A stretch of DNA of 63,805 bases, filler included, from Craspedostauros australis (taxonomy: Eukaryota): assembly GCA_030167865.1 (NCBI GenBank). It is 21 parts of 21 records of this genome, joined end to end, with 100 filler letters (N's around TTAATTAATTAA, not from the genome) between each part and the next. Parts side by side here need not be neighbours in the genome. Positions count along the whole stretch, not along the records: positions 14,044 to 15,601 come from JALAGF010002833.1; positions 15,702 to 18,656 come from JALAGF010002834.1; 19 more parts are not named here. One strand, given 5' to 3'. The notes beneath the pieces are model-generated. The model was not told the DNA's origin and ran no database searches. It saw only the letters and a program-made list of their open reading frames with translations. How positions within the stretch are numbered: the first letter of the stretch is position 1; every line of letters begins with the position of its first letter. A program made the translations under genes and the position numbers. This document shows positions 13,944 to 52,473 of the stretch, piece after piece.

Positions 13944-15767
13944 NNNNNNNNNNNNNNNNNNNNNNNNNNNNNNNNNNNNNNNNNNNNTTAATTAATTAAN
14001 NNNNNNNNNNNNNNNNNNNNNNNNNNNNNNNNNNNNNNNNNNNTGCGAAGAACAGAGCAGGTGTGATTCAATGATGGCAAAGCAGCCTATTTGCACTCAT
14101 GACTGATACCACTGGTTGCCTGATCTGCGCACTGAATGAAGCAACACTGGCATGGCTGGAAAAGAGGTGACGCGAAGAAGTGTCGACAGCGTATGAGCAC
14201 GAACAGAAGCACCAAACAAGACTTGTGGTTGTTTTGCATGTATTCATAAGGGGGGCAGACACAAAGTATTCTATTGTATAATATGCTGGAGTAGAGCAGA
14301 GCCGAGTAGTGCAGAGTCTTTGTTCTGATATGAGCAAGAGCGTGAAGAGTACCAGCCAAAGCATTCATCATGCCATGCGTCGGTTTTGGGGTTGGTGCCA
14401 ACACATCGCCACACACCAAACTTGCGCTGTGTGCTCAAGTCGGCATGCGAAGAAATGTGCTGTTTGATTGCATTGCCACGTCTCCAGGACTGTTGCAATG
14501 CGTGTGGTGAAGTGCTGGCACGCTCTTCTCCTTCCACCACGCAGAGAACGTTCTGGCATTCCGTTCTCAGCCTCAACATGACATCCTGGCGAAAGGCGAG
14601 AACCAATACAGAGCATGTGAACGTAGAACACTATTGTTACAGATGTGGCAAAAAGAAACAATGCCCCTTGCATACTTATCCTGAGGGGAAGAGAACAACG
14701 TGCTTGTTGTAATTGTGGTGTTGTTCTTCTCCATGTCGTGCCTGCATGTGTTGTTGCAAGCAAAGCAGTGNNNNNNNNNNNNNNNNNNNNNNNNNNNNNN
14801 NNNNNNNNNNNNNNNNNNNNNNNNNNNNNNNNNNNNNNNCTCACATGGGAGCATGCGTTTGTTCCGAACACAATTTTCAATGTGTTTCGAAAACTGGTTG
14901 GTCACGATGCAGCAACAAACACGATTGTTGATGTGCTTCAAAAGTGCGCGACAGACCTGCGTTGGTGCCCAAGTTGCTGCCCGCACACCGCTTTGTGCAC
15001 CTGATTGCTTGCGTCATTGCGCATGCGCAGTAAATGCACGACGTGTGTACCTGTGCAAGTGCGGGGGAAGTGGATGCGCACGGAAAGCACACGTGCAGTG
15101 TGTGGCGCAGAAATCCCCAACACGTCTCCTGATGTGTGCATCGCGGTGTATTTCCCCAACTCCATGCATCTTCGCTTCATCCACGCAATTCCCAACGATG
15201 GCCATTCATCGGTGCATCCGCACAATTCCCACGACATCACTGCGACACTATTTGGTCATGACTATGACATAAGTTGTATTCTGTATCTAGACAATACTGA
15301 ATAGACTAACATCATTGATCACTCAAAAGAATCATAAAACGAAGAAAAGAATGATCTTATTCAATTTCATCGCTATCTAATGGCCAAGAACACTAGTAAT
15401 TTATTTGATCCTCTGTTGTTTATTGCTTAACAGCATTGAAAGTTAAAGTGGAAGTGACACTGTGATGGCAAGAGGCGGGATCGGATTCATGTCGTATCGG
15501 ACTTATACAAGACATGTAAAAGACATATTTTTGCATCAAAATGCGAGACGACCCGGATGTGCAGAGAATGTGCAAATTGAAGGGAAGGTGTTGGCAAATG
15601 TNNNNNNNNNNNNNNNNNNNNNNNNNNNNNNNNNNNNNNNNNNNNTTAATTAATTAANNNNNNNNNNNNNNNNNNNNNNNNNNNNNNNNNNNNNNNNNNN
15701 NTGGCCTACCGTGGTGATGACGGGTAACGGGGGATTAGGGTTTGATTCCGGAGAGGGGGCCTGAGAG

Positions 15768-15926
15768 GTACGTTTCCTTGTTTTCTTGCTTTCTCATTAC
15801 ACCAAATCACTTGGTGTGCGAAGATCTTCAATGAAATCGATTCAATTCAATCAATTCAATCAATCATCTCACACATACATATTATATCCTCCCCTTCTTT
15901 TCACAATAACATTCCAACAATTACAG
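15768..15926 (+). other. 18S intron 1 (159 nt)
   Basis: GTACGT...TTACAG with pyrimidine-rich 3' part. Confidence 0.92.
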
Positions 15927-15987
15927 ACGGCCACCACATCCAAGGAAGGCAGCAGGCGCGTAAATTACCCAATTTCGACACGAAGAG

Positions 15988-16155
15988 GTACGTACAACTT
16001 GAACCGACCAAACCAAGTCAAAGTAGATACAACACATCACATCGATCCATAGTAAAAGCATGCATACATATATATATACAACACCCACTCACACATCCAT
16101 TCCTATTCATACACCATTTCCCTCCCTTACCCTTTCCCATCTCTAACAACTTCAG
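15988..16155 (+). other. 18S intron 2 (168 nt)
   Basis: GTACGT...CTCTAAC..TTCAG. Confidence 0.92.
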
Positions 16156-16255
16156 GTAGTGACAATAAATAACAATGCCGGGCCTTTCTAGGTCTGGCAA
16201 TTGGAATGAGAACAATTTAAATCTCTTATCGAGGATCAATTGGAGGGCAAGTCTG

Positions 16256-16607
16256 GTAAGTAACAGCGACAGTACCAGCGACAGTACCAGCGACAGTACC
16301 AGCGACAGTACCAGCGACAGTACCAGCGACAGTACCAGCGACAGTACCAGCGACAGTACCAGCGACAGTACCAGCGACAGTACCAGCGACAGTACCAGCG
16401 ACAGTACCAGCGACAGTACCAGCGACAGTACCAGCGACAGTACCAGGAACAGCAACAGCAACAGCAACAACTGACGTGGCACAACACGCACAGCGATCAA
16501 CCAAACCGAAAACAAACAACCAAACTAACAAACTTTTTCGATCATTCATTGACTTCTCTCAATACACACTATCACTATCACCACTATCATTGCCCTTGCA
16601 ATCACAG
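16256..16607 (+). other. 18S intron 3 (352 nt, contains minisatellite)
   Basis: GTAAGT...ACTAAC...TCACAG. Confidence 0.92.
16264..16443 (+). repeat. perfect 12-bp tandem repeat (CAGCGACAGTAC)x15 inside 18S intron 3
   Basis: Directly visible; followed by short CAGCAA repeats. Confidence 0.97.
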
Positions 16608-16627
16608 GTGCCAGCAGCCGCGGTAAT

Positions 16628-16808
16628 GTAAGTAACACCCCAAGAATCTGTGACACTGTGGCGTGTCATCGTCGGAATAAAGTCTTGGACCAATAGATCA
16701 GCCAGCAGCCAATCATACATATACTCACACATACGCAACCATATCTACTCTACTCTACTCTACTCTACCCTACCCTACCCTACCCTCTGTCACTTTTGGA
16801 AACTACAG
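16628..16808 (+). other. 18S intron 4 (181 nt)
   Basis: GTAAGT...CTACAG; (TCTAC)n/(CCTAC)n tract. Confidence 0.92.
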
Positions 16809-17133
16809 TCCAGCTCCAATAGCGTATACTAATGTTGTTGCAGTTAAAAAGTTCGTAGTTGGATTTTTGGCAGACGTTGGCGGCCTGACACTTAGTGTTT
16901 GTGCTTGCCGACGTCGCCATCCTTGGGTGGAACCTGTGTGGCATTCAGTTGTCGTGCAGGGGATGCCCATCATTTACTGTGAGAAAATTAGAGTGTTCAA
17001 AGCAGGCTTATGCCGTTGAATATCTTAGCATGGAATAATAAGATAGGGCCTTGGTACTATTTTGTTGGTTTGCGCACTAAGGTAATGATTAAGGAGAACA
17101 GTTGGGGGCATTCGTATTCCATTGTCAGAGGTG

Positions 17134-17371
17134 GTAAGTACTATATTACGCAATACATTGCGATACATTGCATTATGCATTGCAATATGCATTGCAGCAT
17201 ACTGGTCTAGATTCAACTAGACTAGACTATAACGACGCACAGCACCGTATCTCGAGACCAGCAGACACAAGAAACCATTCACTCACACAACATTATCCAT
17301 CTTCACTCCACTTCACTCCACTCCACTCTATAACATGGACTCGTCATCATTCAACTTCCTTCTCTCCACAG
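17134..17371 (+). other. 18S intron 5 (238 nt)
   Basis: GTAAGT...CTTCCTTCTCTCCACAG. Confidence 0.92.
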
Positions 17372-17469
17372 AAATTCTTGGATTTCTGGAAGACGAACTA
17401 CTGCGAAAGCATTTGTCAAGGATGTTTTTATCAATCAAGATCGAAAGTCAGGGGATCGAAGATGATCAG

Positions 17470-17678
17470 GTACGTTCAAATCATTGCTACCACGCTATAT
17501 GCTACGCCTGTATGCTATGCACCAGGCATAGCCACTCTTGCAACTCTCTCGAACTATTGCACGACACGACATCACACGACATGGCACTAACCTAATATCC
17601 AACATCACTCCATCTTCATTTCCGTCTCCATCTCTTCCACATGTTCTACATTCCACACCTTGCTCCTCGAATTATCAG
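17470..17678 (+). other. 18S intron 6 (209 nt)
   Basis: GTACGT...ACTAAC...TATCAG. Confidence 0.92.
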
Positions 17679-17782
17679 ATACCATCGTAGTCTTGACCAT
17701 AAACTATGCCGACAAGGGATTGGTGGGGTTTCGTTTAGTCCTCATCAGCACCTTACGAGAAATCATAAGTCTTTGGGTTCCG

Positions 17783-18022
17783 GTAAGTCCGCAATTGGAG
17801 TGGCGACAGATGTGCATCTACGCTTTGCTGCTGCTCTGCGTAGTTGGGACACTCTGCTTCTGGACTGCACATGTTCAATTTCAATCTCATGAGCACACAC
17901 ACATCCAACCCGACGCAAACAAACGATCCAACTAACCACATTCTGTTCTGCTCTTTTCCTCCCAAAACTACATTCCGACACGAATCAATCGATCACTCGA
18001 CTCAACTCAACTTGACTTGCAG
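17783..18022 (+). other. 18S intron 7 (240 nt)
   Basis: GTAAGT...ACTAAC...TTGCAG. Confidence 0.92.
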
Positions 18023-18033
18023 GGGGGAGTATG

Positions 18034-18238
18034 GTAAGTTAACTGAAGCTCTGCTGCTGCTGCCGATCGAAGCATATTGACATAAACGCCAAGCGCGGCA
18101 GATAGATGGATTAATACAATACAATACAATACAGACAGACGATCAAATTGAACTCATGACCCCGATACTTACCTATTCCATTCCAATTCCCTCTTTCCCT
18201 CCTTCTTGGCTCTCCATTTACTACGATTACAATTACAG
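18034..18238 (+). other. 18S intron 8 (205 nt)
   Basis: GTAAGT...polypyrimidine...TTACAG. Confidence 0.92.
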
Positions 18239-18284
18239 GTCGCAAGGCTGAAACTTAAAGAAATTGACGGAAGGGCACCACCAG

Positions 18285-18486
18285 GTACGTTTCATCATCA
18301 TCTTTAACTGCTTCTACGCCAACGACGACCAGTATTCGAGATTGATACTGACACGCCATGAAATTCATGACGACCACATCATCTCACAAAATCCTTTCTC
18401 TTCCTATCCACGACATTACATTACATTACATCACATTACATTGACTGGCTCATCGACCCATCACATCCTCCTCTTTCATCTTACAG
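18285..18486 (+). other. 18S intron 9 (202 nt)
   Basis: GTACGT...TTACAG. Confidence 0.92.
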
Positions 18487-18520
18487 GAGTGGAGCTTGCG
18501 GCTTAATTTGACTCAACACG

Positions 18521-18656
18521 GTAAGTTTGATTCCACTACATTATCTTTATTTTTTAGAAATTAAAGAAGGAACAAACAAACACTCTGATTTATGAGACAA
18601 AACGATCGATGGCGTATCACTCACACTTAATTTCTTCCACAACTTCCCTCCGACTC
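18521..18656 (+). other. 18S intron 10 (3' end lost in gap)
   Basis: rRNA homology stops at CTCAACACG and is followed by GTAAGT; acceptor not visible. Confidence 0.8.
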
Positions 18657-18756
18657 NNNNNNNNNNNNNNNNNNNNNNNNNNNNNNNNNNNNNNNNNNNN
18701 TTAATTAATTAANNNNNNNNNNNNNNNNNNNNNNNNNNNNNNNNNNNNNNNNNNNN

Positions 18757-20645: not shown

Positions 20646-21259
20646 TGTTTTGAGATGATTGACGAACCAACATGGCGAACAATGGATGCGAAAGGGAGAC
20701 TGGAGCACCGAAGTGTTCCAAGCACGTGGGTTGACCAGTCGAACCGAAACATCTATGCGAGAACGCTATCACTGTTGTATCAATCAGAACTCAGAACATG
20801 ATTACGTGACTGATAGAGAACCACCGAAGGAGAACAAAGCGCGGACTGGAATATCATCGAAGGACTGGACTGATCATGCCAGAACTCCATGTTCTGAACA
20901 AGTGTGACTACCAGTGAACATGTGAGAAGAGTGAGTGAACAACACGAAAGAGTGCACTGAATGAGTGATGGATGCCTGATGAGAAGAGAGTGAATCGAGC
21001 ATTGGCATGCATGCATCTCAGGAGTGTAGGAGGGCACCTCTATGAACAAGTATGATGAAATGCACTTGTCATGAGCAGTGAGATGCGAATGAAGGAGAGG
21101 GTTTGTTACAATGATTGCAAGGGGCAACTACAGGGGGCCATCGGCATCATGGTGAGCAAACGAATTGAGGAGTTGAGAAATGAAGGTGTTGTTTTCACAG
21201 TTCTAAAACGGTACAGTTTAATAAGCATTAGACTATATCTATACCCCGAATTTCCAACA
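20646..21259 (+). repeat. 3' portion of another LTR ending CCCCGAATTTCCAACA
   Basis: Terminal CACAGTTCTAAAACGGTACAG..TTTCCAACA shared with the LTR at 58245-58340 (minus). Confidence 0.6.
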
Positions 21260-21266
21260 CATATCC

Positions 21267-22988
21267 ATGTTCAATCGAGATGTGGCAAGTCTAATGATTG
21301 ACACCACAGAAGGGAGAATGAGGCTGGATGAGTTCATCGCAGCAAGCCAACGAGTCGAAAGAGGAGATTGGAACGAGACGTCCGAGCATGCATACACAGC
21401 TATGATGCTGGACCCTACTACCTTCGAGGAATGCTGGGATCATGCAGATCCAGCTAAGCGAAGGAAATGGCGGGAAGCCATCAATAAGGAATTCTACGAT
21501 ATGTTGAGACGAGGAGTCTGGCAGAAGATCAAGAAGAACGAGATGCCGAGGGATCGGCGATGTGTGAAGACGAAATGGGTCTTCAAGGAGAAGAGGAACG
21601 GAGTCTTCCGCGCCAGGTTGGTTGCCTGTGGATACTCGCAGATTGCTGGAGTAGATTTCTCCGCTCATCATGCGCCAGTGATCCATGACGCAACGTACCG
21701 AGTCATGCTGACTATGAAGATGCTGTTGAAGACAGACAGCATCATCATCGACTTCGAAACCGCCTTCCTGCACGGAGATCTCGAGGAGGAGATCTACATG
21801 CAGTGCCCCAAGGGAATGGAGCATGAACCGGACGAATGCCTGCTGCTAAAGAAGACCATCTACGGGTTGGTTCAGTGCGCAAGGCAGTGGAACAAGAAGC
21901 TTGTGGACATCCTGATCAAGCTTGGCTTCCGGCAGAGCAAGGTGGACCCATGCCTGATAAGTCGGAATCGGGAAGGGAACCTCGTCCTCATCGGAACGTA
22001 CGTCGATGATTGCCTGTGCATCGGAAGCACCCTCGAGCTGAAGCGACTGGTGCAAGACATCAAACGCGAACGATTCGGAATCAAGATCGAGGATGGACTC
22101 GAAGACTACTTGAGTTGCCGGATCGAATTCAACGAGAGCGAAACCAACTGCTGGGTGAACCAGCCACACATCATCAAGAACATCACGGATACATTCAAGA
22201 GCAACGTGATGAAGCTTCAACGATACGGAACCCCAGGCACACCAGGCCAAGGGATCCAGAGGAACAGCGAAGCACCCAAGGTCGACAAGGATCGACATAG
22301 CAGATACCGCAGTGGAGTGGGCATGCTGCTATACCTGGTGAAGCATTCGAGACCAGACATCGCGAATGCAGTCCAAGAACTCACGAAGGTGTTGGATGGA
22401 ACAACGACCACAGCATACAAGGAGATGCTGAGAGTGATGAAGTTCGTGTCGGACACGAGAGAATACGGATTGAGGATGGAGCCCAAGCCGTTGAACAACA
22501 ACGCATGGAAGATCGTGGTGTACACCAACAGCGAGTTCGCTGGAGACAAGGACAACCGCATCAGCGTTGGAGGACATCTGGTCCTACTGCAAGGCGTGCC
22601 CATCATCTGGAGATCGAAGGTGCAACGCAGCGTGACATTGAGCTCGACTGAGGCCGAGTACGTCGCACTGTCAGAAGCTGGAAAGGAGATCCGCTTTTTG
22701 ACTCAACTGATGGAGGACATCGGGTTGAAGATGGAGAAACCTGCAGATGTGATGGTCGACAACGTGGGGGCGATCTTCATCGCCACCAATCCATCGACAT
22801 CAGCGAGAACGAGACACATCGATATACGCAACCACTTCATCAGAGAGCTGATTGCTAACAAGGAGGCGAGAGCTCGATTCGTGAAGTCAGAGGATAACAT
22901 CTCCAACGGTTTCACGAAGAACACAAAGAAGGAGATCTACGATCGGCACAAGGGGAGCATCATTCAGCCCAGATCAGCATTGGACTGA
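21267..22988 (+). mobile_element. Ty1/copia pol (RT-RNase H), 5'-truncated, with RNase H catalytic Asp residues mutated
   Basis: KWVFK..RARLVACGYSQ, KTIYGL, TYVDD, YTNSEFA (D>N), RHIDIRNHF. Confidence 0.95.
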
Positions 22989-24568: not shown

Positions 24569-25861
24569 CTACTCTTCGATCTTCATCATTTGACGGATCT
24601 TGCGCTTCAGAGATCCATCTCCCACGCCGTCACAAGCGGAGAAGTATTGGTTCACGCTGCGGTCGGGGTCAAGGAAGAGCGGGGCGTTGTTGTACTCATT
24701 GTACAGCGACTCATTGGCCTCCATGCGCCGAATCAGATCGAGCGCTTCATCTGGTCTGGTGACGTCGTAGTAGACGAACGACTTTGGATTGAAGATGTCG
24801 TGAACGATGCGGGAACCTGTGTAGATCGGCAGGCATCCGCCGAGGAAGCCGTTCATCAACTTCTCGGTGATGTATCCCGCCTGGCCAACCACATTTTCCA
24901 TGACCAAGCAGTATTTGTATTGACCCATCGTCTGGAAGTTGTTGCTGAAGCTCTGCCTGCCTCCCAGCGCGGTGTCGGGAAATAGACTGTTGTTGCGCAT
25001 CGGCACGTTGGGCTTGCACTGGCCGTGATAGACATCGAGGAATTCCGACAACCGTCGTGCGGCCTCGTCGCGAAAGTCGACGCAGTGGCCGTTCTTGTAC
25101 AGCACGCCATTGATTTGACGCGTGGAGTTTCGGCGCACGCCAATCTCCGGGTGCAAGATCGGATCCACGTCGGGCGAGGGCCTGGCCTGCGCCATTCCCG
25201 TCATGAAATGCATCTGGTACGAGTTGTCTCGCTGCAGATGCGAGACGGGACCGATTTGATAGAAGCGGTCGCCGATGTCCTGCGGCGAGAACCTTGCCCA
25301 AATATCGCCGTACGACTCGGCGTTGTAGAACAGGATCTTGCCGGGACGCTGGCTGTCAGGCTTCCGCTTGGCTCCCTCACCCCACAGCATGTTGCCGCTT
25401 CCCGGCAGTTGGGCGTGCATACCGAACACCACAACGTCGTTGGGAGTCAGCGGCGTCTCCTCCTTCCAATCGCCGCTGAAATTAAAGTCGGGGAACAGGC
25501 ACTTCGTGATGGCCTTGCTCCAGGCCCCGGTCACGTAGACCCGACCCGGTTCCATCAGCATCCTGGGTGTGTGCTCGGATGATTCGACCACTTCGGCTTG
25601 GTGCCTCGCGGTACCTTCTGCATGATCGGCCGTCGAGTTCATGGCGCACTCTGGACCAACGTACTCCTGCATGGTCGTGGTGGAGAAGATCATCCCGGTG
25701 CGCGTGTTCCCAAGCACCAAGTTGATGATGACGATAACGATGAGCACGGCAAAGGATGATGGCTGCAACCATGAGTTGCTCTTCGTCTTTCGAGACGCTC
25801 GCCGTGTCCTTCCTTCATCCGCGTCTGTTGGGTTTGGTTCACCCATCATGCCATGTCGCAA
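24569..25861 (-). CDS. glycosyltransferase family 10 (alpha-1,3/4-fucosyltransferase-like), type II membrane protein
   Basis: N-terminal TM (FAVLIVIVIINLVL); GT10 motif YKYCLVMEN..GYITEKLMNGFLGGCLPIYTG. Confidence 0.9.
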   Translation of the reverse strand: MRHGMMGEPNPTDADEGRTRRASRKTKSNSWLQPSSFAVLIVIVIINLVLGNTRTGMIFSTTTMQEYVGPECAMNSTADHAEGTARHQAEVVESSEHTPRMLMEPGRVYVTGAWSKAITKCLFPDFNFSGDWKEETPLTPNDVVVFGMHAQLPGSGNMLWGEGAKRKPDSQRPGKILFYNAESYGDIWARFSPQDIGDRFYQIGPVSHLQRDNSYQMHFMTGMAQARPSPDVDPILHPEIGVRRNSTRQINGVLYKNGHCVDFRDEAARRLSEFLDVYHGQCKPNVPMRNNSLFPDTALGGRQSFSNNFQTMGQYKYCLVMENVVGQAGYITEKLMNGFLGGCLPIYTGSRIVHDIFNPKSFVYYDVTRPDEALDLIRRMEANESLYNEYNNAPLFLDPDRSVNQYFSACDGVGDGSLKRKIRQMMKIEE

Positions 25862-26109
25862 ACCAGCAGGATCTCTGTATGGAGCCGAGTCGGCGAATGT
25901 GAGTATGGAAGTGTGTGTGGGAACAAGAGGAAGAGGAAGGGCAGGAGGAGGAGTATTGGAACGTAGGTATGTATAGTGAGTGGTACGTAACTTGATGTAA
26001 TTGATCGGTNNNNNNNNNNNNNNNNNNNNNNNNNNNNNNNNNNNNNNNNNNNNTTAATTAATTAANNNNNNNNNNNNNNNNNNNNNNNNNNNNNNNNNNN
26101 NNNNNNNNN

Positions 26110-41219: not shown

Positions 41220-44200
41220 TGTGATAGACGTTAAGACAAGTTACGACACACGTGAAACTGATTTAGAGTGAAAAAGAGTAAAGATGCAGATTATGAGTCT
41301 TATCGATGTCGTATGTGTCAGTGCAGTTGTCTCATTACCGTGTTGTCCATGATTGGTAGTGGCGACTATCGTGTAACGCCGTTTCAACGGTTTCATACAT
41401 ATCCCGGTTTGGTCCCCTCGATGCGCGGTGGCTGTGCTAGCCGTCGTATCGTCACATTTTGGTTGCATTCGGGATGTACCTGCTGCATGCCCCACATATG
41501 GACACCGCAGGGCGCTCATCCCACCAACCATGAGCAGATCCCATGATTGACCACCCGTGGGTACTATTGCGCAGCGCCGAGGTCAGAAGAGGACCCGTTG
41601 TGCTTGTTCTTTTCGTCTCGGTCCTTGTTGTTGTTTTGTGAGCATATCGGATAGATTGGCCTCTGATGGTTCATGTTGGACCACCAAGATGCCCGCAGCA
41701 ATGCTTTCTCTGACGAAGTGATATGCGATAGCATTGGACTTCTTCCGCAGTTGTGATTCTGGTAGTGAGGAGTTGTACACCACACTTTGATTATTAACAC
41801 GTACGTCCGCTGGGCCCTCCAGTGGAATGCCCATCATGCGAAGCTTGTATCTCATGCTGATGATGATCTCAGTTGCAACCTTGAGCGCTGTGAACTCGCT
41901 GCTGAATGTGGATGTCTCAATGCTGTTCTGTTTCTTGCTGTACCACAGTATCGGTGATGTATTCAAAAACAAAAGCACACCAGTGCGAGAACGTTGTGTG
42001 ACGCGGTCACCTGCATGGTCAGCGTCAACAAAGCACGTCATTTGAACTTCTTTTCCGCGCGGTGGTGTCATGTCAGCAGGTAGTTGTTCATGGGCATCAG
42101 GGTAGAAATCGTTCCAGTTGGGTTGCATCACAGGCGGTTTGTCAATGTATGCATCATCAAAAATAAGGCGAGAACGATCGTGAGATTTGAGGTATGCGAA
42201 CATGTGAAAGAGAGCATGCAAGTGACCAATTCGTGGCGCAACACAGTATGATGCCATCATCGAGGTCTCGCAACATATGTCGATCCGTCCAAGTTCAACA
42301 GTCCAGCGCAGTATACCAATCAGCTGCTGGTAGAAAGTTGTTTGCTCGGAGTCACACAATTGCGATCCATCCAATTCTGGTCGGTATTTGTTCGGTAGGA
42401 CGCTGGATGCTTTCGTTTTGAGCCGTAGATTGTTGTCGGTGAGGTACTTCGTGACGATCTTGAGAGCGGATTTGATGTATTCTTGTGAGCCCATGCTCCA
42501 TTTGGGATGTGATGGATCGGCAGTGAGATGGAATTGTGAGATGGTAGATCCAAGATATGTTGTTGGAGGGCCAATGGAACTCGGTTTGAGGAAAAAGTGT
42601 GAGTCAATCGCATCAAGGATGCGTCATGGTTGTTTGGATACGGCAAGGATGTCGTCGGTGTACACGAGCACATATTCGTAATATTCTGACCCATCGCTCG
42701 CAACAGCAGGCTTCATCCAGACGTCGCTGTCAGCACGGCAGGATGTGAATCCCAACAAATCGCGCAGTGTCTCCGCCAGATGTGCTCTCCATGCTGCTCC
42801 GCTTGATTTCAATCCGTACAGGGCCCGACAAATGATGGCGATCTTCCCCTGGTCGGATCCGAACTCCGGACCACATCGTGTGTATATGCGTTCCCGACAT
42901 GGAGCGTTGAGGTATGCATTCTGAACATCCGCAGCAAGGATGTCCAAGTCATTGAGTGCAGCAATCAATAATGCGATGCATACACTTTTGCGTGATACCA
43001 CACTTGCATATGTGATTGTTGCAGGTGCCTCCGTCATGTGTCCCCCAGCGACAAGTTGCGCCTTTCTTGTGAGGTCCACCTTGACGGCAAATATCATGTG
43101 GCATTCCATGTATTGGTAGCCCACAGGATCGGGAGTATCCGATTCTTTGATATCGAACGCTGGTTGCACAGCCTTCATCTCCTTTGCAATAGCTTGTCGC
43201 CACAGATCCGTGCCTGTAGCCGCGTCAATTGCGAGGGCGTGACGCACTGAGGTAGGGAGCTCCACGCCAAACATTTCGTTCTTTCGGACGTGTCGCCGTT
43301 TCGTTGCCATGATGATGCGTTGTCGTTGACGTAGAGTGTGTGGTACCCACCACTTGAATGCAAGTTCGTTGACAAGTTTGTTGTCTTCTGCGTATTCGGC
43401 AACGCGTACTGGGTCGGCTTCTTTTGCGTCACGTAGGTGGATCCAAGATGTGGACCTGTCTTTCCATCGGATGCAGAGCTTCCAGCCTTTTGTGGATTTG
43501 GAGTGAGGAGGTGGAGAAGAAACAGAGGGCAAGCGTTTGTGATCAATGATCTCATCCATCAACACAGTCGTGTATCCGTCGTCATCAATGCGCGCGTAAA
43601 TGTTCTCCGCGATTTGGTTGGCACTGAACACCTCATGGTGTCCATCAAGAAATTCGACTTCGTATTGCGCAGTATCGAGCATCGGATTCGGATGGGATCT
43701 GCCAATGAGATTGCCTTCTGTGTCTCGTTTGCGTTGTTTGACTGTTCCATGTTGCATTTCGTCCCCTGTCGGTAGAATGACTTTAGTTGCAATGTATTTG
43801 TCGAAAGTTGCACTGTCAACATCATCTGGCTCCACGATTTGTTCCAATGGTTCGGTGTTCTACAGGATCGCGATGTCTTCGGCAGTATCGTCAACATCGT
43901 CGCCGTCATCGTCGATTGTGATTCCCTCCATTCGTTGTTTCCATTTGGATCGTAGTGTGTCCATGAATTCGTTACATTTATGTGCGATGACGTTGCTGTG
44001 TGTGTCGTCGTGAGAGAGAGGCAAAACAGAGGATTTGGAGACAACAACGCCGTTGGCAGTGAGGATGTACGAGCACATGGCATCACCAACAGAGCGGCTT
44101 GGTCCAAGGTACCGACCAAGTTGTTTGACGTTCATGGATGCGTCTTGGATGTTGATATACCACACAAAGTCAAACCAGCCAAATTCAGCAATGTGGGAGA

Positions 44201-46963: not shown

Positions 46964-49900
46964 AGACTACTGCATCACCAATGGAACATGACATCTGGAG
47001 AGCAGAAGGACACCTACTGACGTTGACAGGATGTCATCATGTCACCATGTCGACATCTGTCTCCAAGTCAGAGCAGGAGGCGAAGATCCGATGACCGAAG
47101 GGCATCAGCATCATGGATACAGAAGGTGAACTTCAAATGGCGAGTACTCATGGAGTAGGAGCCAGTACTGAATGAACGAAGTGTCGAATGCGGAGTACGC
47201 ATCGAACACGGAGTATCGTGTAGCATGAGCACACGATGTTGAGAGAGAGAATACAGAGAGGAGCGAGAGAGCATCTCGCGTACCGACTCATAGTCGGAGC
47301 CCGAATCTACGAAACAGATTGAAGCGCCAAGAGCATCGGGCAAGAGAACTGGTGTACACCGAGAGGATCGGAGTAGCCAACTAATGAAATAGCAAACAAC
47401 CGACTATCAACCAACACCATCTTCCACAATCGTAGGTTACCATGAGCGGAACTTGCCAACACGTTTATAAACGATAGATCAGGGCGAGCCCGCGGATCGG
47501 ATCGTGCGAGGAAGACGAACATCATTCAGGAGCAGCAGATTGAATGAGCGAGGAAGAGGAATTGAAAGATATCCCTCTGTCCCAACTAGCTATCAAGCAA
47601 GAAGAAGGTGCGAGTGAGACTCTACTTCAAGAACAGAAGGAAGTAGCAGCGGCTACTGTCCTATCAGGCAAAGACGCAAGCGCAATCGGCGAGACCGAAG
47701 AGGAACGGTCTGCAAGACTACACCGTAAGGAGAAGAGGATTCTCAAGGCGGTCAAGCAAGAGGAGACTGGTGTGACGAAGAGCATTCGCACAGCCAAACA
47801 GGGTGGGAAAAGTGAGACACCACCAGGAGGAGAATTTGTGAGCAAATCAATCCTCGCGAAACAACAAGCGAAAATCGAAAAAGTGACAACACAGAAACAG
47901 ACAGAAATCAAAGGCGCGAGCGCACCAACAACGAAACAACGAATCAACATGGCGACATCAGCCAACATGAACAAGCAACGCATCAAGGCGCTGATGTTCA
48001 GCGGTGAACAAGAGGATTATAGCGCATGGGAGTCCCAAGCAAAGGCATACGCTCATACACAGAAGACGAGAGACGTGATGTTGGGCAAGACGAAGATCCC
48101 AACAGTGAGTGAGATCGTGGCAGCCGCCGGCGATGCCAAGGAAGCGATGGAGGAAATCTACGAGCTGGGATGCGACTGCTTCAGCGATCTGATCCTCATG
48201 ATGGATGCAGAGAAAGGAAAGGGCAAGCAGGCCATCCAATACATCAATCAGTGCATCTCCGACGATTACCCTGAGGGGAATCCACACACGGCATGGAACG
48301 TTCTCGCGGAGAAGTTCTGGCCATCCGACGCGGCGACGAAGATCAAACTCAAGCGTCAATTCAACAACGAAAGGATGAAGAAAGACTCGGACCCCGACAT
48401 CTACATCACATGACTCGAGGGTCTACGATCGCGTCTCCACGATGTCAAGTACACGATCACAGACGAGGAGATGATCATGCAAATCCTCAGCACGGTGAGC
48501 AGCGAATACAGAACTCACATCGTGAACTTCCAACACCAACTCACGTTCAATCCGGAACTGGTTACCATCAACGCGATCAGAGGAGTGCTCCGTACTGCAT
48601 ACGCCACCCACAGAGGAGGCAAGGCATACGTCGACGACTTCCAAGACAGTAACACGAAGAGCAACGACACCGGCTTCACGAGTACCGGTAACTTCAAGGG
48701 TACTTGTCACAACTGTGGCGTGTATGGTCACAGATCCGCCGATTGCCCAGAACGTAAGAAATCGAACAACAAGAAAAACAACAACAACAACAACAAGATG
48801 AACGGAAAGCACAACAACAACCGCAACAAAGGAAGCGGCTTCAACAGGAAGTGCAACTACTGTGGCATCTTCGGACACCGCGAGGCGGAGTGCCAAAAGA
48901 AGAAGTTCAACGAGAACAAGAAGGCCAACGAACAAGCCAACACGGCAACGGAAGGACACAACAAGAGCGGGCACGAGATGGTACTCTCAGCAAAGGACAT
49001 GCCGCTCTGCATGTTGGTGTCCGACAACTACATTGAAGACTCCTTCTTCGATAACTTCGAATGCGTCGGGAGTGACGACGAAGTACAGGACGATGAGATC
49101 GTCCCGGAGTGGCTCAGCGAAGAGCCAATCATCCACGAGGTGGATCCAAGACGCGAAGTAAGCTACGAATGCTGCTTCAACGCGAACGACCTGATTGGTC
49201 CATATGGCGACGGAGCCGAGATGGGCAACGAGGCCAACGATAGCAACATCGAAGAGGCCATGAGTGAAGAGGCCGACGATGAGATCAACGAGAATGATAG
49301 AGGCCAAGATGAAACGAACGGCGGTGCGGCGCCTCCTCCTCCAGCGGCAGGGAACAACAGATCGGGCATCTTCGACGAAGATGATAGCGATGAAACCGAA
49401 AATCATCCGGACGACAGCTTCAATCCAAACGAGCGTGTCGTCTACCCAGCGAACATCGAGTTCCCGCCGATCGGGAATCCCAACGACTTGAACTACCTCC
49501 ACCGTCATGACACCATTCCGTATGGAACGGAAACAGCATTGGTAATCCAGAAGCAGCTCATCTTCGATGCCGTAATGGAAGCAGGAGTGAAACTATTCCC
49601 AGGCGTCGCACAAGGAGTGCTCAGACCGATATGGGTGAACATGATGGGATCCATTCTGTCCAAGAACTTCAGATCAATCGAAGAGATTCTCGTCAATTCG
49701 GTCGTCATCAATCGCATACTGGAAGCGGCTGACACAGAGACGATTCCAGAAACGGATCTGCATTACATCCTTGGAGGATGCATGTGTGTGCTCTTGCGCG
49801 AACGACCACGCGTCAACCCATATGATCCAGCCACAGGATTGCATCGAAACAGTACGATTCCATCCGACTACGCGCAACTACCCGACAACATGGATGACGA

Positions 49901-52473
49901 GGACCACCATCATCCATACAACGAAGACGGAGTCCACGAAGACGATGATGATGGCAGCTTCGACGACGAGATAGCTGCGGCAGCTGTGGAGCAGCTCCAC
50001 GAACTGAGCACCAGATACAAGGGCAAGGTCAACAAGGACACCTGGCTCACCAACAGTGGAGCTTCGTGTCACATCGTCAACTCGGACGCCGCTCTCTTCA
50101 ACGTGCGGCACATCAAGTCTTTCGTCCAAGTGGGAGACAGCACGAAGCTGGACTCTCCCAAGATGGGATCCATTCGCTTGAAGGTCAAGCAGCGAGACAA
50201 CACTGGCCACATCATCCGGCTTGATGATGTGAAGTACACACCAACAATGGCGGTGAACCTTTTCTCAACAAACAAGACTCTGTACAATGGTTACCAGCTT
50301 GGTAACAACGGCATTTTGATGGACATCATCAACGGATCCGGAACGAAGATTGTGTTTGATCGAGTCTTCCCCACATCCAACGGATTCATCACAGGAGTGC
50401 AGATGCATCCCATCATGCCATCAAACGACGACAAGGCTTCCACAGCCATCATCAAGAATCCATCCAAGGAGATCAGCGCGGTGAACTTGCACCGAATGCT
50501 CGGCCACGCGCCACTCGAGACCATGAAGCGGACGGCCGCTCAGTACGGATGGAAGATCATCGGCGAGATGCCGGTATGTCGCGACTGCGCGGTCGCGAAC
50601 GCAAGAGTGAAGAACATCCCGAAGGCAACGATTCCAAGAGCAACTCGCCGCGGCGAACGACTCTTCATTGACATTAGTTACACTAAACACATAAGCTTCA
50701 GAGATAAACGCTACTGGACCCTGATTGTGGACGACTGCACAGATCACTGCTGGAGTTTCTTTCTCAAGAACAAGAGTGACCAACCAGGGTACATCAAACG
50801 ATTCGTTCAGACGATCAAGTCACAGACTGGTGATCAACAAATCATCTTCCGAGGAGACAACAGCGGAGAGAACAAATCTACGCAGGATACTCTCATCGAT
50901 GCAGGACTCAATGTGAAATTCGAATTCACGGCATCAAACACGCCGCAACAGAACGGTAGAGTAGAACACAAGTTTGCGTACCTCTACACCAAGATCCGCT
51001 CCATGCTCAACGGAGCACAACTCGACGAAGAGTATAGGCATGGCCTATGGGCAGCAGCTGCTAGCACTGCCACCGCCATTGCCAACATCACCGTAGCGAA
51101 GAACCAGAAGGAGTCACCACATCGACAATTCTTCGGCAACGATCCACCATATGCGGATGCACTCCGNACNTTNGGAGAGGTGGGTGTTGTGAAGACTACC
51201 TACGGCGGGATCACCGCCAAACTCAAGAATAGAGGAGAAGAGATGGTGTTCATCGGATATGCACACCAACACGCATCAGGGGTCGACAACATGTACAGAC
51301 CATCGACCAAGTCACTCATCTGTTCACGGGACATCAAGTGGCTCAACCAATCATACGGACAGTTCCGTGGCTGGGCACCAGCACCAAACATATCCAGCGA
51401 AATGGGAACGACAGACGCAGACGGCTTCACAACCATCGGATAGAAGGGAGCAATGCCAAGGATGGCAATGCGTCAAACATCAGAAGCGAAGAGAGTATCT
51501 TTCGCCGACACGAACAAGTATCACATCATATCAGATAGCGACGATGAGGATGACGAAGACAATGGAGCAGTGACTCAAGTAATCCATAACAACAACGAAG
51601 ATGGGAGCGAATCCAATCAGGAGGATGACGAAATCCAACCATCCGGTGATGAAGCCGACGATGACACAGGCGTCACTCCTCCAAACACACCAGCAAGGTC
51701 TACACATGACACACCATCCAGACCTCCACCAACCAAACCAAGCAAGCGTGACATAGCTAGAAAGGAGAGAATCCGACGTCATGAAGCACGAGGCAGGAAG
51801 GGAGAAACCAATCCCAAACCGACTGCAGGGAAGAGCATTCCTAGAGCTCTGCGTGAGCTCGCAGACTTCAACGAACGAGGTCGAAAGGAGGAAGGCTATG
51901 AGCAAGTCATCATCCAATGACGACAGTGACGAACTCAGCGATGAGATAACCGACGAATCCAACAATGAGACTACAGATGACGAAGAAATTGTAGACGGAG
52001 AAGAAGAGATCGAAATCACTCATCATAGCACAACAGGACTCTACGGGATGAATGCAATCATCACCGAAGCACCAGCAATCGACATTGGACTGTTGATGCA
52101 GGACGAGAACAAGGAACCAGAGAAGCACATTGAACCAACGACATTCGATGGAGCCTTCAACCACCCAGATCCCATCCATCGAAAGGGATATCGAGCAGCC
52201 ATCAAGAAGGAGTTCGACTCCATGGATACACGAAAAGTGTACAGCAAGATCAAACGAGACGCCATCCCACGCGGCCGCAGATGCTGCAAATGCAAATGGG
52301 TCTTCAAGTTGAAGCGTGACGGCACACATCGAGCNCGGCTCGTTGCATGTGGCTATTCACAAGTCGCAGGAGTAGACTTCCAAGAGCATTACTCACCCGT
52401 CATTCATGACGTGACCTATCGGGTCATGATGGTGATCATGCTGATCAAGAAGATGGACTGCGCACTCGTCGAT
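46964..52473 (+). mobile_element. Ty1/copia element: 5' LTR family R (to 47461), gag with two zinc knuckles, PR, IN and start of RT; inactivated
   Basis: CHNCGVYGHRSADC, CNYCGIFGHREAEC, WLTNSGAS, LHRMLGH..CRDC, LFIDI..IVDD..RGDNSGEN..QQNGRVE, KWVFKLK..LVACGYSQ; stops at 48411 and 51441, frameshift near 51900. Confidence 0.95.

Follow-up and report, generated by a model that had tools for sequence, protein, structure and literature searches.

The window, i.e. the whole stretch of 63,805 nt that was analysed from the Craspedostauros australis assembly, carries at positions 15702-18656 a stand-alone contig of 2955 nt with eukaryotic 18S rRNA sequence on the plus strand. We found that a total of 865 nt of 18S rRNA (positions 15702-18520) is split into 10 exons, with nine complete inserts of 159 to 352 nt between them and one further insert that is cut by the contig end (Table 1), which corresponds to a density of about one insert per 87 nt of 18S. 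Coordinates, counts and motifs agree with the initial annotation, which had described a ten-insert 18S gene with 865 nt of rRNA in 10 exons. The contig scores 386 bits against the Rfam model SSU_rRNA_eukarya, and the alignment to this model shows inserts 1-6 with sizes that equal the intron length plus the model's own residues. The 20-nt micro-exon (exon 4) is presumably the universally conserved '530 loop' stretch of the 18S rRNA. Insert 3, the longest one, contains a 12-nt minisatellite with 17.2 copies at 16259-16464. The contig is bordered on both sides by N runs with TTAATTAATTAA linkers, so that the adjoining contigs of the window are unlinked to it.

Table 1. Exons and inserts of the 18S rRNA gene, in positions of the window. 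Donor and acceptor are given for each insert as first..last letters.
Feature	Length (nt)	Position	Strand	Remarks
18S exon 1	66	15702..15767	+	contig begins inside the exon; L119 18S positions 313-378
Insert 1	159	15768..15926	+	GTACGT..ACAG; AG-free tract of 101 nt
18S exon 2	61	15927..15987	+	3-bp predicted hairpin with three compensated pairs relative to L119
Insert 2	168	15988..16155	+	GTACGT..TCAG; CTAAC 9 nt and CTCAC 64 nt before the acceptor
18S exon 3	100	16156..16255	+	Rfam and L119 alignment
Insert 3	352	16256..16607	+	GTAAGT..ACAG; CTAAC 79 nt before the acceptor
18S exon 4 (micro-exon)	20	16608..16627	+	identical to L119 over all 20 nt
Insert 4	181	16628..16808	+	GTAAGT..ACAG; the only donor without a preceding G
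18S exon 5	325	16809..17133	+	includes V4; predicted V4 hairpin with 6 compensated pairs relative to L119
Insert 5	238	17134..17371	+	GTAAGT..ACAG; inverted repeats in the 5' part (fold z -2.8)
18S exon 6	98	17372..17469	+	Rfam and L119 alignment
Insert 6	209	17470..17678	+	GTACGT..TCAG; CTAAC 88 nt before the acceptor
18S exon 7	104	17679..17782	+	predicted hairpin with one compensated pair; another pair compensated with exon 6 across insert 6
Insert 7	240	17783..18022	+	GTAAGT..GCAG; CTAAC 87 nt before the acceptor
18S exon 8 (micro-exon)	11	18023..18033	+	L119 alignment
Insert 8	205	18034..18238	+	GTAAGT..ACAG
18S exon 9	46	18239..18284	+	L119 alignment
Insert 9	202	18285..18486	+	GTACGT..ACAG; same site as the single insert of L119
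18S exon 10	34	18487..18520	+	L119 alignment
Insert 10	at least 136	18521..18656	+	GTAAGT..; 3' end cut by the contig end

Splice signals of the inserts

All ten inserts start with a GTRAGT-like 5' splice site, either GTAAGT (6/10) or GTACGT (4/10), and all nine complete inserts end in CAG, a recount on the contig that reproduces the numbers given earlier. The plus strand of the contig contains exactly ten GTA[AC]GT hexamers, every one of them located at the 3' end of an exon. By comparison, 2000 first-order Markov simulations of the contig produced 0.59 on average and never more than 5, and the rest of the window has 0.23 per kb per strand. The placement of the hexamers at exon ends is thus not due to chance. 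The donor is directly preceded by G in nine of the ten inserts (P=9e-5 at 28.4% G) and by T in the remaining one, and a purine follows directly after the acceptor in 8 of 9 cases (P=0.04).

Each of the nine complete inserts shows an AG-free tract of 95-145 nt before the acceptor; compared with shuffled sequences, P is ≤0.018 in all but inserts 1 and 2, which have values of about 0.10. The G content drops to 2-9% in the last 95 nt of the inserts, versus 14-23% in their 5' part, and the AG-free tracts may be a simple by-product of this depletion. When both strands of the whole window were screened for an AG-free, G-depleted tract followed by YAG, nine sites were found, eight of which are acceptors on the rDNA contig. 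The pyrimidine-rich tracts that had been noted ahead of the acceptors are present in part, with 50-82% pyrimidine in the last 22 nt, but depletion of G is the clearer feature. Regarding possible branch points, CTAAC is found in 4/9 complete inserts, in line with the earlier mention of such motifs in several inserts. The more degenerate CTNAY is present at ≤50 nt from the acceptor in only two of the nine inserts and at 55-100 nt in all nine; given their shortness and the C/T/A-rich surroundings, these distal motifs may have arisen by chance. A scan of the other contigs for ORF breaks was too noisy to provide trustworthy mRNA introns of the same organism.

Comparison with other intron types

Rfam searches detected neither group I nor group II cores (E≤1 on the contig, E≤0.1 in the window), and SSU rRNA was the only match. 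With no core on the contig at E≤1, T before the insert in only 1/10 cases and G in 9/10, a group I intron is rejected, and the absence of a group I core and of a U|...G boundary rule is upheld as first described. The inserts had also been called unstructured. This applies to most of them, as nine of eleven folded pieces have energies similar to those of shuffled sequences, but not to the 5' part of insert 5 with its inverted repeats. Uniform U1-type donors, CAG acceptors, the lack of a group I or group II match and the mostly shuffle-like folding together support the view that these are spliceosomal-type inserts, judged by their sequence.

On this contig the inserts do not qualify as introner-like elements: the 45 insert pairs gave a median z of 1.3, and the best local scores of 30-33 represent short matches.

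Comparison of the exons with L119

L119 is an 18S rDNA contig that is filed in a bacterial genome bin, is nearly intron-free and is taken by us to be diatom-like from the general features of diatom 18S sequences. When the exons are joined in silico, all 865 nt align to L119 18S positions 313-1177 with 91.4% identity (869 columns, 67 mismatches and 8 gap columns), and the mismatches include several 18S core positions. The gap columns are all located in V4, ≥82 nt from the nearest junction, so no indel is present at any of the nine junctions, which confirms in silico the claim that excision restores the rRNA without junction indels. Within its 18S positions 1-1200, L119 carries only one insert (121 nt, GTATGT..ACAG), located after 18S position 1143, with CTGAC 49 nt upstream and a T-rich tract. 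This is exactly the site of insert 9, and the two inserts show no sequence similarity (z 0.8).

In exons 1, 2, 5 and 7 we compared 159 predicted pairs with L119, the helices being predicted from the same two sequences and hence biased towards kept pairs: ten pairs differ at both positions and are still paired, 16 have one-sided changes that keep the pairing, and none is broken. One predicted helix pair lies across insert 6 (positions 962/999) and changed from U-A to C-G relative to L119. The predicted helices demonstrate rRNA-type structural constraint on the exons, also across an intron.

Relation to known introns in rRNA genes

18S genes split by introns of this type are already known from other diatoms and from lichen fungi, but the present copy holds an unusually large number of them for its length. 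Bhattacharya and colleagues reportedly described spliceosomal introns in the rDNA of lichen-forming ascomycetes in 2000. The lichen introns are, as in our contig, GT-AG introns at an ectopic location in rRNA genes; they are described as absent from the mature rRNA, and one of them was correctly removed by yeast from Pol I rRNA transcripts (PMC8527467). Differences concern their number, as these fungi are said there to have 'a few' spliceosomal introns per gene and many group I introns, while Rfam detected no group I intron on our contig, and their length, which is 57 nt for the intron tested in yeast versus 159-352 nt here (PMC8527467).

Among diatoms, Chaetocerotaceae carry spliceosomal introns in 18S and 28S rDNA (PMC6306197), a precedent that the initial annotation had named correctly. 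The same paper counts 17 sites of spliceosomal introns across diatom 18S, where one gene can hold as many as 10 of them besides a group I intron. It gives the intron layout as GTDHNN, a variable part, YTRAC, a CT-rich part and YNHAG, and describes variation in presence and absence of these introns within individuals; its Table 1 also includes group I introns in diatom rRNA genes. The contig resembles these genes in having many short inserts per diatom or, in our case, diatom-like 18S, with the same order of elements, the GTACGT donor also occurs among their introns, and two sites only 22 nt apart that are occupied in one taxon provide a precedent for micro-exons (PMC6306197). In contrast to the ten inserts in 865 nt of rRNA found here, the taxa in that table have at most 6 spliceosomal introns and one group I intron in the same part, and with about 96-199 nt their introns cover the length of 3/9 of our complete inserts, the other six being longer. 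Our contig further differs from the genes described there in that its exons can be as short as 11 nt, that the G-depleted tract lacking AG spans ~95-145 nt and that candidate branch motifs lie 55-100 nt upstream (PMC6306197). The AG-free, G-depleted tracts, the compensated exon changes and the L119 insert that shares the site of insert 9 are new here.

Regarding the insertion sites, we take the two group I sites tabulated for Chaetocerotaceae to be the classical S516 and S943 sites. By arithmetic from these assumed sites, site 1147-1148 of the table is that of insert 9, and sites 385-386, 548-549, 888-892 and 989-990, compared by position and without their sequences, are 1-4 nt away from inserts 1, 3, 5 and 6; inserts 4, 7, 8 and 10 have no counterpart in the table (PMC6306197). 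The diatom endosymbiont of Durinskia kwazulunatalensis has four inserts of 86-95 bp in its 18S rDNA, which a comparison of rDNA and rRNA found to be missing from the mature rRNA; according to this report they are mostly without known intron motifs, in contrast to the canonical GT-AG pattern in all ten inserts here (PMC12519138).

The novelty that had been claimed for such a density in a raphid pennate diatom is overstated. Olifantiella is a raphid pennate genus, and Han and colleagues are said to have found in its 18S several intron sites that are lacking in cDNA; with the seven sites reported for the whole gene, the density would be below that of this contig. Apart from the up to 10 introns per diatom 18S in PMC6306197, Olifantiella sp. 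(Han et al. 2018, J Phycol 54:105) is cited as a second diatom case of spliceosomal rDNA introns (PMC6306197, PMC10756210).

Probable origin and processing of the intron-bearing 18S gene

The source of the rDNA appears to be diatom-like, judging from the identity of 91.4% to L119 and from a fucosyltransferase-like ORF on a neighbouring contig of the window, for which Bacillariophyta are the nearest Atlas clusters. At a probability of roughly 65% we favour the interpretation that the contig is a piece of the nuclear 18S of a diatom-like alga with at least ten U2-type (GT-AG) spliceosomal-type introns. These would most likely be removed from the pre-rRNA by the spliceosome, as has been proposed for the rDNA of Chaetocerotaceae and lichen fungi and was shown in engineered yeast. 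The copy would be functional and the intron-bearing rDNA unit transcribed by Pol I. U1 would recognize the GTA[AC]GT donors, a CTNAY motif 55-100 nt upstream of the acceptor would act as a distal branch point, and, with a G-free tract behind the branch point, the first AG downstream would be the acceptor.

A bolder and tentative proposal, which we would rather doubt than expect to hold, is that the contig represents the working 18S gene of the organism or its main class. Every small subunit would then need at least ten splicing events, including the joining of micro-exons of 11 nt and 20 nt. The uniform layout of the inserts would be adaptive, allowing fast and accurate splicing in a highly structured Pol I transcript; its elements would be perfect U1-type donors, a branch motif located ~80-90 nt upstream, and a G-free tract of ~95 nt in which neither G-C nor G-U pairing with the rRNA would be possible. 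No other known rRNA gene would then bear so heavy a spliceosomal load, by extrapolation ~20 splicing events per small subunit should the density hold over the unseen half.

Alternatively, the contig could be a minor or non-functional rDNA paralogue (orphon, pseudogene or array variant) that exists beside working 18S genes with fewer or no introns, which we regard as unlikely. It is only 2955 nt long and broken at both ends, as would be expected if the assembly graph forks there between variants of a repeat, and such introns are described as polymorphic in presence and absence within individuals (PMC6306197). Furthermore, the exons differ by 8.6% from L119, core positions included, and an exact 22-nt V4 word of this copy is absent from the metagenome collection searched. 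However, none of the predicted pairs is broken and exon changes are compensated, in one case across an intron, and a decaying copy would not be expected to retain every donor, every visible acceptor and all nine G-free tracts intact.

That the contig comes from another organism in the culture or sample, i.e. a second diatom or other stramenopile, is quite improbable. The contigs of the window are mutually unlinked, the G+C content of the rDNA contig is 44% as opposed to 48-60% in most others, and L119 itself is an example of a diatom-like rDNA contig in the wrong bin. On the other hand, the composition of rDNA often deviates from that of the remaining genome, the fucosyltransferase-like ORF fits a diatom assembly, and with another source the introns would have a different owner but be of the same kind.

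We give very little credence to transcription of this rDNA class by Pol II, for instance as a non-coding host transcript with mRNA-like splicing outside the normal Pol I ribosome route. Spliceosomal introns are, as is generally known and restated in PMC8527467, normally tied to Pol II transcription, and nothing on the contig indicates its polymerase; yet Pol II is not required, as is evident from the Pol I transcripts in which yeast spliced out an intron of this kind (PMC8527467). The rRNA structure kept by the exons also speaks against this explanation, but the contig, which includes no promoter region, does not contradict it.

Fragmented rRNAs exist in other protists. Even so, removal without the spliceosome, be it of degenerate group I or group II introns, by a bulge-helix-bulge endonuclease or through excision without ligation that leaves fragmented rRNA, is hardly credible here: group I introns do occur in rRNA genes elsewhere, also in diatoms (PMC6306197, Table 1), but on this contig there is no group I or group II match at E≤1, G instead of U precedes the insert in 9/10 cases, 9/11 folded pieces are shuffle-like, the uniform GTA[AC]GT..CAG ends would be without a role, and rRNA fragments as short as 11 and 20 nt would be improbable on their own.

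Implications

If the spliceosome indeed removes these introns from the pre-rRNA, a diatom with a sequenced genome and an intron every ~87 nt of 18S would offer a natural test system. To our knowledge, it has barely been studied how the spliceosome acts on a Pol I transcript while the ribosome assembles co-transcriptionally, and the cases we know of are lichen fungi, which grow slowly and are difficult to work with experimentally, and diatom strains represented solely by PCR sequences. Such a diatom could be used to address whether splicing is nucleolar, in which order it occurs relative to rRNA processing, and what it costs the cell. On the practical side, an intron-crowded 18S defeats standard 18S primers and V4 metabarcoding, as noted for Chaetoceros (PMC6306197, PMC11007259). 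Tools for rRNA annotation likewise see only fragments of such genes; a default Rfam scan reported only positions 16831-17782 of the rDNA contig.

Ten inserts split an 18S rRNA gene fragment

The window consists of about 25 unlinked contigs separated by N runs around the linker TTAATTAATTAA, which introduces stop codons in all six frames, and many of these contigs contain single-N positions. The split gene described here occupies one entire contig (the rDNA contig, see the table); since the contigs are unlinked, its neighbors are uninformative on linkage. The Rfam eukaryotic SSU model scores 386 bits on the rDNA contig, starting at model position 337. Exon limits were read by eye and then checked by script, which yielded ten 18S exons of 66, 61, 100, 20, 325, 98, 104, 11, 46 and 34 nt, 865 nt in sum. 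The exons of 11 and 20 nt are the smallest rRNA exons that we have seen described so far. The nine complete inserts, 1 to 9 in order, measure 159, 168, 352, 181, 238, 209, 240, 205 and 202 nt, while insert 10 (at least 136 nt) is ended by the contig end; together the inserts make up about 71% of the contig.

Insert donors are GTAAGT in six and GTACGT in four of ten cases, and all nine visible acceptors read CAG. The plus strand of the contig holds ten GTA[AC]GT hexamers, each one a donor; 2000 Markov simulations of the contig averaged 0.59 such hexamers and never exceeded 5, and the remainder of the window carries the hexamer at 0.23 per kb per strand. Nine of the ten donors have G as the exon base before them (P=9e-5), and eight of the nine acceptors are followed by a purine (P=0.04). 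The split of the 18S gene is real and far beyond chance.

Table. Features of the rDNA contig and of other contigs, in window coordinates
Feature	Position	Strand	Remarks
N-run joints (examples)	15602-15701, 18657-18756
rDNA contig	15702-18656	+	2955 nt, 44% G+C
Minisatellite, 12-nt unit AGTACCAGCGAC	16259-16464		inside insert 3; 17.2 copies, 96% matches
Default Rfam scan	16831-17782		only part of the 18S fragment detected
Pairs compensated on both sides			six in V4 hairpin; one in exon 7; beside insert 2, three out of the four in a small hairpin
Copia-type retroelement ORF	21225-22985	+
Fucosyltransferase-like ORF	24572-26008	-
AG-free, G-poor tract	25875-25955	-	ends in CAG
Copia-type retroelement ORF	42627-43859	-
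Copia-type retroelement ORF	48414-51440	+
AAA_16 ORF			on another window contig

Excision judged against an almost uninterrupted reference

Scanning a prokaryote genome collection with a 23-nt word from exon 7 returned a single contig, L119. Its eukaryotic 18S gene covers model positions 1-1225 at 1047 bits, with about 1 kb of spacer on the 5' side, and we take it to be diatom-like. L119 lies in a bacterial genome bin, presumably as a contaminant. The bin also has an ordinary bacterial 16S (L122); a search of the bin for further eukaryotic rDNA gave only the L119 contig and the bacterial 16S. When the exons were spliced in silico, all 865 nt aligned with L119 18S positions 313-1177 at 91.4% identity (869 columns, 67 mismatches, 8 gap columns). 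The gap columns all fall within the V4 variable region, at least 82 nt from every junction, and in L119 numbering inserts 1-10 follow positions 378, 439, 539, 559, 884, 982, 1086, 1097, 1143 and 1177. Judged by this alignment, in-silico excision of the inserts is exact. The initial annotation had described ten exons with 865 nt of 18S, GTAAGT or GTACGT donors, nine CAG acceptors and excision without junction indels; the sequence and the script check confirm the former points, and the alignment of the joined exons the last.

A shared 3' architecture of the inserts

All nine complete inserts have an AG-free tract of 95-145 nt upstream of the acceptor, which is longer than in shuffles of the same insert at P≤0.018 for seven of them; inserts 1 and 2 reach only about 0.10. 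The last 95 nt contain 2-9% G versus 14-23% in the 5' part. Scanning both strands of the 63.8 kb for 80 nt free of AG, with ≤8% G and ending in YAG, gave nine sites, eight of which are rDNA acceptors; the acceptor of insert 7, with 9% G, lies narrowly outside the limit. The ninth site lies on the strand of the fucosyltransferase-like ORF, close to its 5' end, and may mark the 3' limit of an mRNA intron starting beyond the contig end. A scan of the other contigs for mRNA introns by ORF breaks returned mostly artefacts, even within the rDNA contig.

Each of the nine complete inserts has a CTNAY motif 55-100 nt upstream of its acceptor, as CTAAC in inserts 3, 6 and 7 (at 79, 88 and 87 nt) and as CTCAC or CTCAT in the remaining complete inserts, and only two of the nine have such a motif within 50 nt of the acceptor. 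We read these motifs as candidate distal branch points, with a long AG-exclusion zone behind them, bearing in mind that they are short and that the tract composition favors them.

The inserts are neither ribozymes nor copies of one family

Rfam scans for ribozyme cores returned only SSU rRNA on the rDNA contig (E≤1), and across the whole window no other family was found (E≤0.1). Group I introns are expected to follow a U; here nine inserts are preceded by G and one by T, contrary to this rule. The originally noted lack of a group I core and of the U boundary agrees with the permissive scans and with the pre-insert bases. Eleven pieces of ≤150 nt from eight inserts (1, 2, 4-8 and 10) had folding z-scores from -2.8 to +1.2, two of the 11 at ≤-2. 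By pairwise scores the inserts form no repeated family: the median z of the 45 insert pairs is 1.3, and even the two pairs at the top (z 7.8 and 5.6) reach local scores of only 30-33. Their interiors contain micro- and minisatellites, with shorter 5-nt repeats in inserts 1, 4, 5, 6, 8 and 9 besides the minisatellite in the table. On both strands of the contig no credible ORFs were found, only low-complexity or repeat-derived frames. A spliceosomal nature of the inserts is well supported at the level of sequence.

Structural constraint on the exons

RNAalifold was run exon by exon on the alignments of exons 1, 2, 5 and 7 with L119. None of the 159 predicted pairs is broken between the two copies, a count biased toward kept pairs since the structures were predicted from the compared sequences themselves; ten pairs are altered on both sides and sixteen on one side, yet all of these still pair. 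In addition, a U-A pair between position 962 in exon 6 and position 999 in exon 7 has become C-G, with both partners changed; its helix spans insert 6 and is marked as paired in the Rfam alignment. This pair was listed by a count of compensated pairs over all helices of ≥6 bp, a count that serves only this listing, as the observed 6 lies below the random null mean of 8.3. Such co-variation across insert 6 would be expected of exons that are linked within a single folded RNA, and on the predicted structures the exons behave like working rRNA.

At L119 positions 603/954 (listed under the equivalents of window positions 16603 and 16954) both partners differ, C.A in L119 and U.U here. In this helix the Rfam consensus shows C-G, and Rfam flags the pair of the present copy as non-canonical; the change may be a co-variation of a non-canonical pair.

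A possible route to mature rRNA

Starting from the observed anatomy, we infer each step of a pathway in which a Pol I transcript loses its inserts through the spliceosome and the exons are ligated by intron definition, and we put its probability as a whole at about 0.65. Pol I would transcribe the rDNA unit, U1 would pair with the near-perfect G|GTA[AC]GT donors, and the far-upstream branch motif would be bound by U2. The G-free tract could form neither G-C nor G-U pairs with the G-rich rRNA and would stay single-stranded; as it offers no competing AG, we propose that the first downstream AG is used. Intron definition would then also serve the micro-exons of 20 and 11 nt. The main alternative, in which the rDNA copies are heterogeneous and the present one is a minor or dead variant, we consider unlikely: both the intact splice signals and the compensated exon changes speak against decay, although each is compatible with a young variant.

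Comparison with other diatoms

Spliceosomal introns in rDNA are already known from diatoms and lichen fungi; new here is a denser case with a strikingly uniform 3' architecture. L119 has one insert only (121 nt, L119 2140-2260, GTATGT..ACAG, CTGAC 49 nt upstream, T-rich tail), at the identical site as insert 9 but without sequence similarity (z 0.8). Gaonkar et al. (PMC6306197) bear out the initial mention of Chaetocerotaceae as carriers: they give 17 spliceosomal sites in 18S, up to 10 of them plus one group I intron per gene, occasional presence/absence polymorphism within individuals and the same order of intron elements as here, leave the crowding unexplained, and refer to Han et al. 2018 for Olifantiella. 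We anchored the comparison on two group I sites of their table, assumed to be the classical S516 and S943. Given this anchoring, site 1147-1148 equals insert 9, and sites 385-386, 548-549, 888-892 and 989-990 are candidate counterparts of inserts 1, 3, 5 and 6, from which they lie 1-4 nt away; for inserts 4, 7, 8 and 10 the table offers no counterpart. Any taxon there has at most six spliceosomal sites in the corresponding stretch compared with ten here, so that the present copy is about 1.7 times denser. Four 18S inserts of a dinotom's diatom are missing from mature rRNA, according to PMC12519138. The Haslea paper PMC8070900 reports organellar introns only, and PMC11646303 treats rDNA introns in general terms. 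Our literature search, which makes no claim on all print, met no diatom 18S richer in inserts than that of Chaetoceros diversus 2, which has eleven.

The metagenome scan gave no match to an exact 22-nt V4 word, and a scan of prokaryote genome contigs gave none to the exon-4-plus-donor junction. The exon-6-end plus donor pattern hit at least 118 metagenome loci; none of those listed matches any exon (blastn-short, E≤1e-3), and they were rejected as relatives because the pattern is too short and matches by chance. Word shares in 17 sequencing runs were 0.24 for one and 0.09-0.10 for 16 metatranscriptomes, values that say nothing about expression, splicing or habitat.

Other contigs of the window

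The copia-type ORFs carry RVT_2 and Pol_BBD + zf-CCHC domains, and in-frame stops separate some adjacent ones (41586-42623 / 42627-43859). For the fucosyltransferase-like ORF, most of the Atlas clusters that come nearest belong to Bacillariophyta, an affinity that may serve as a pointer, short of proof.
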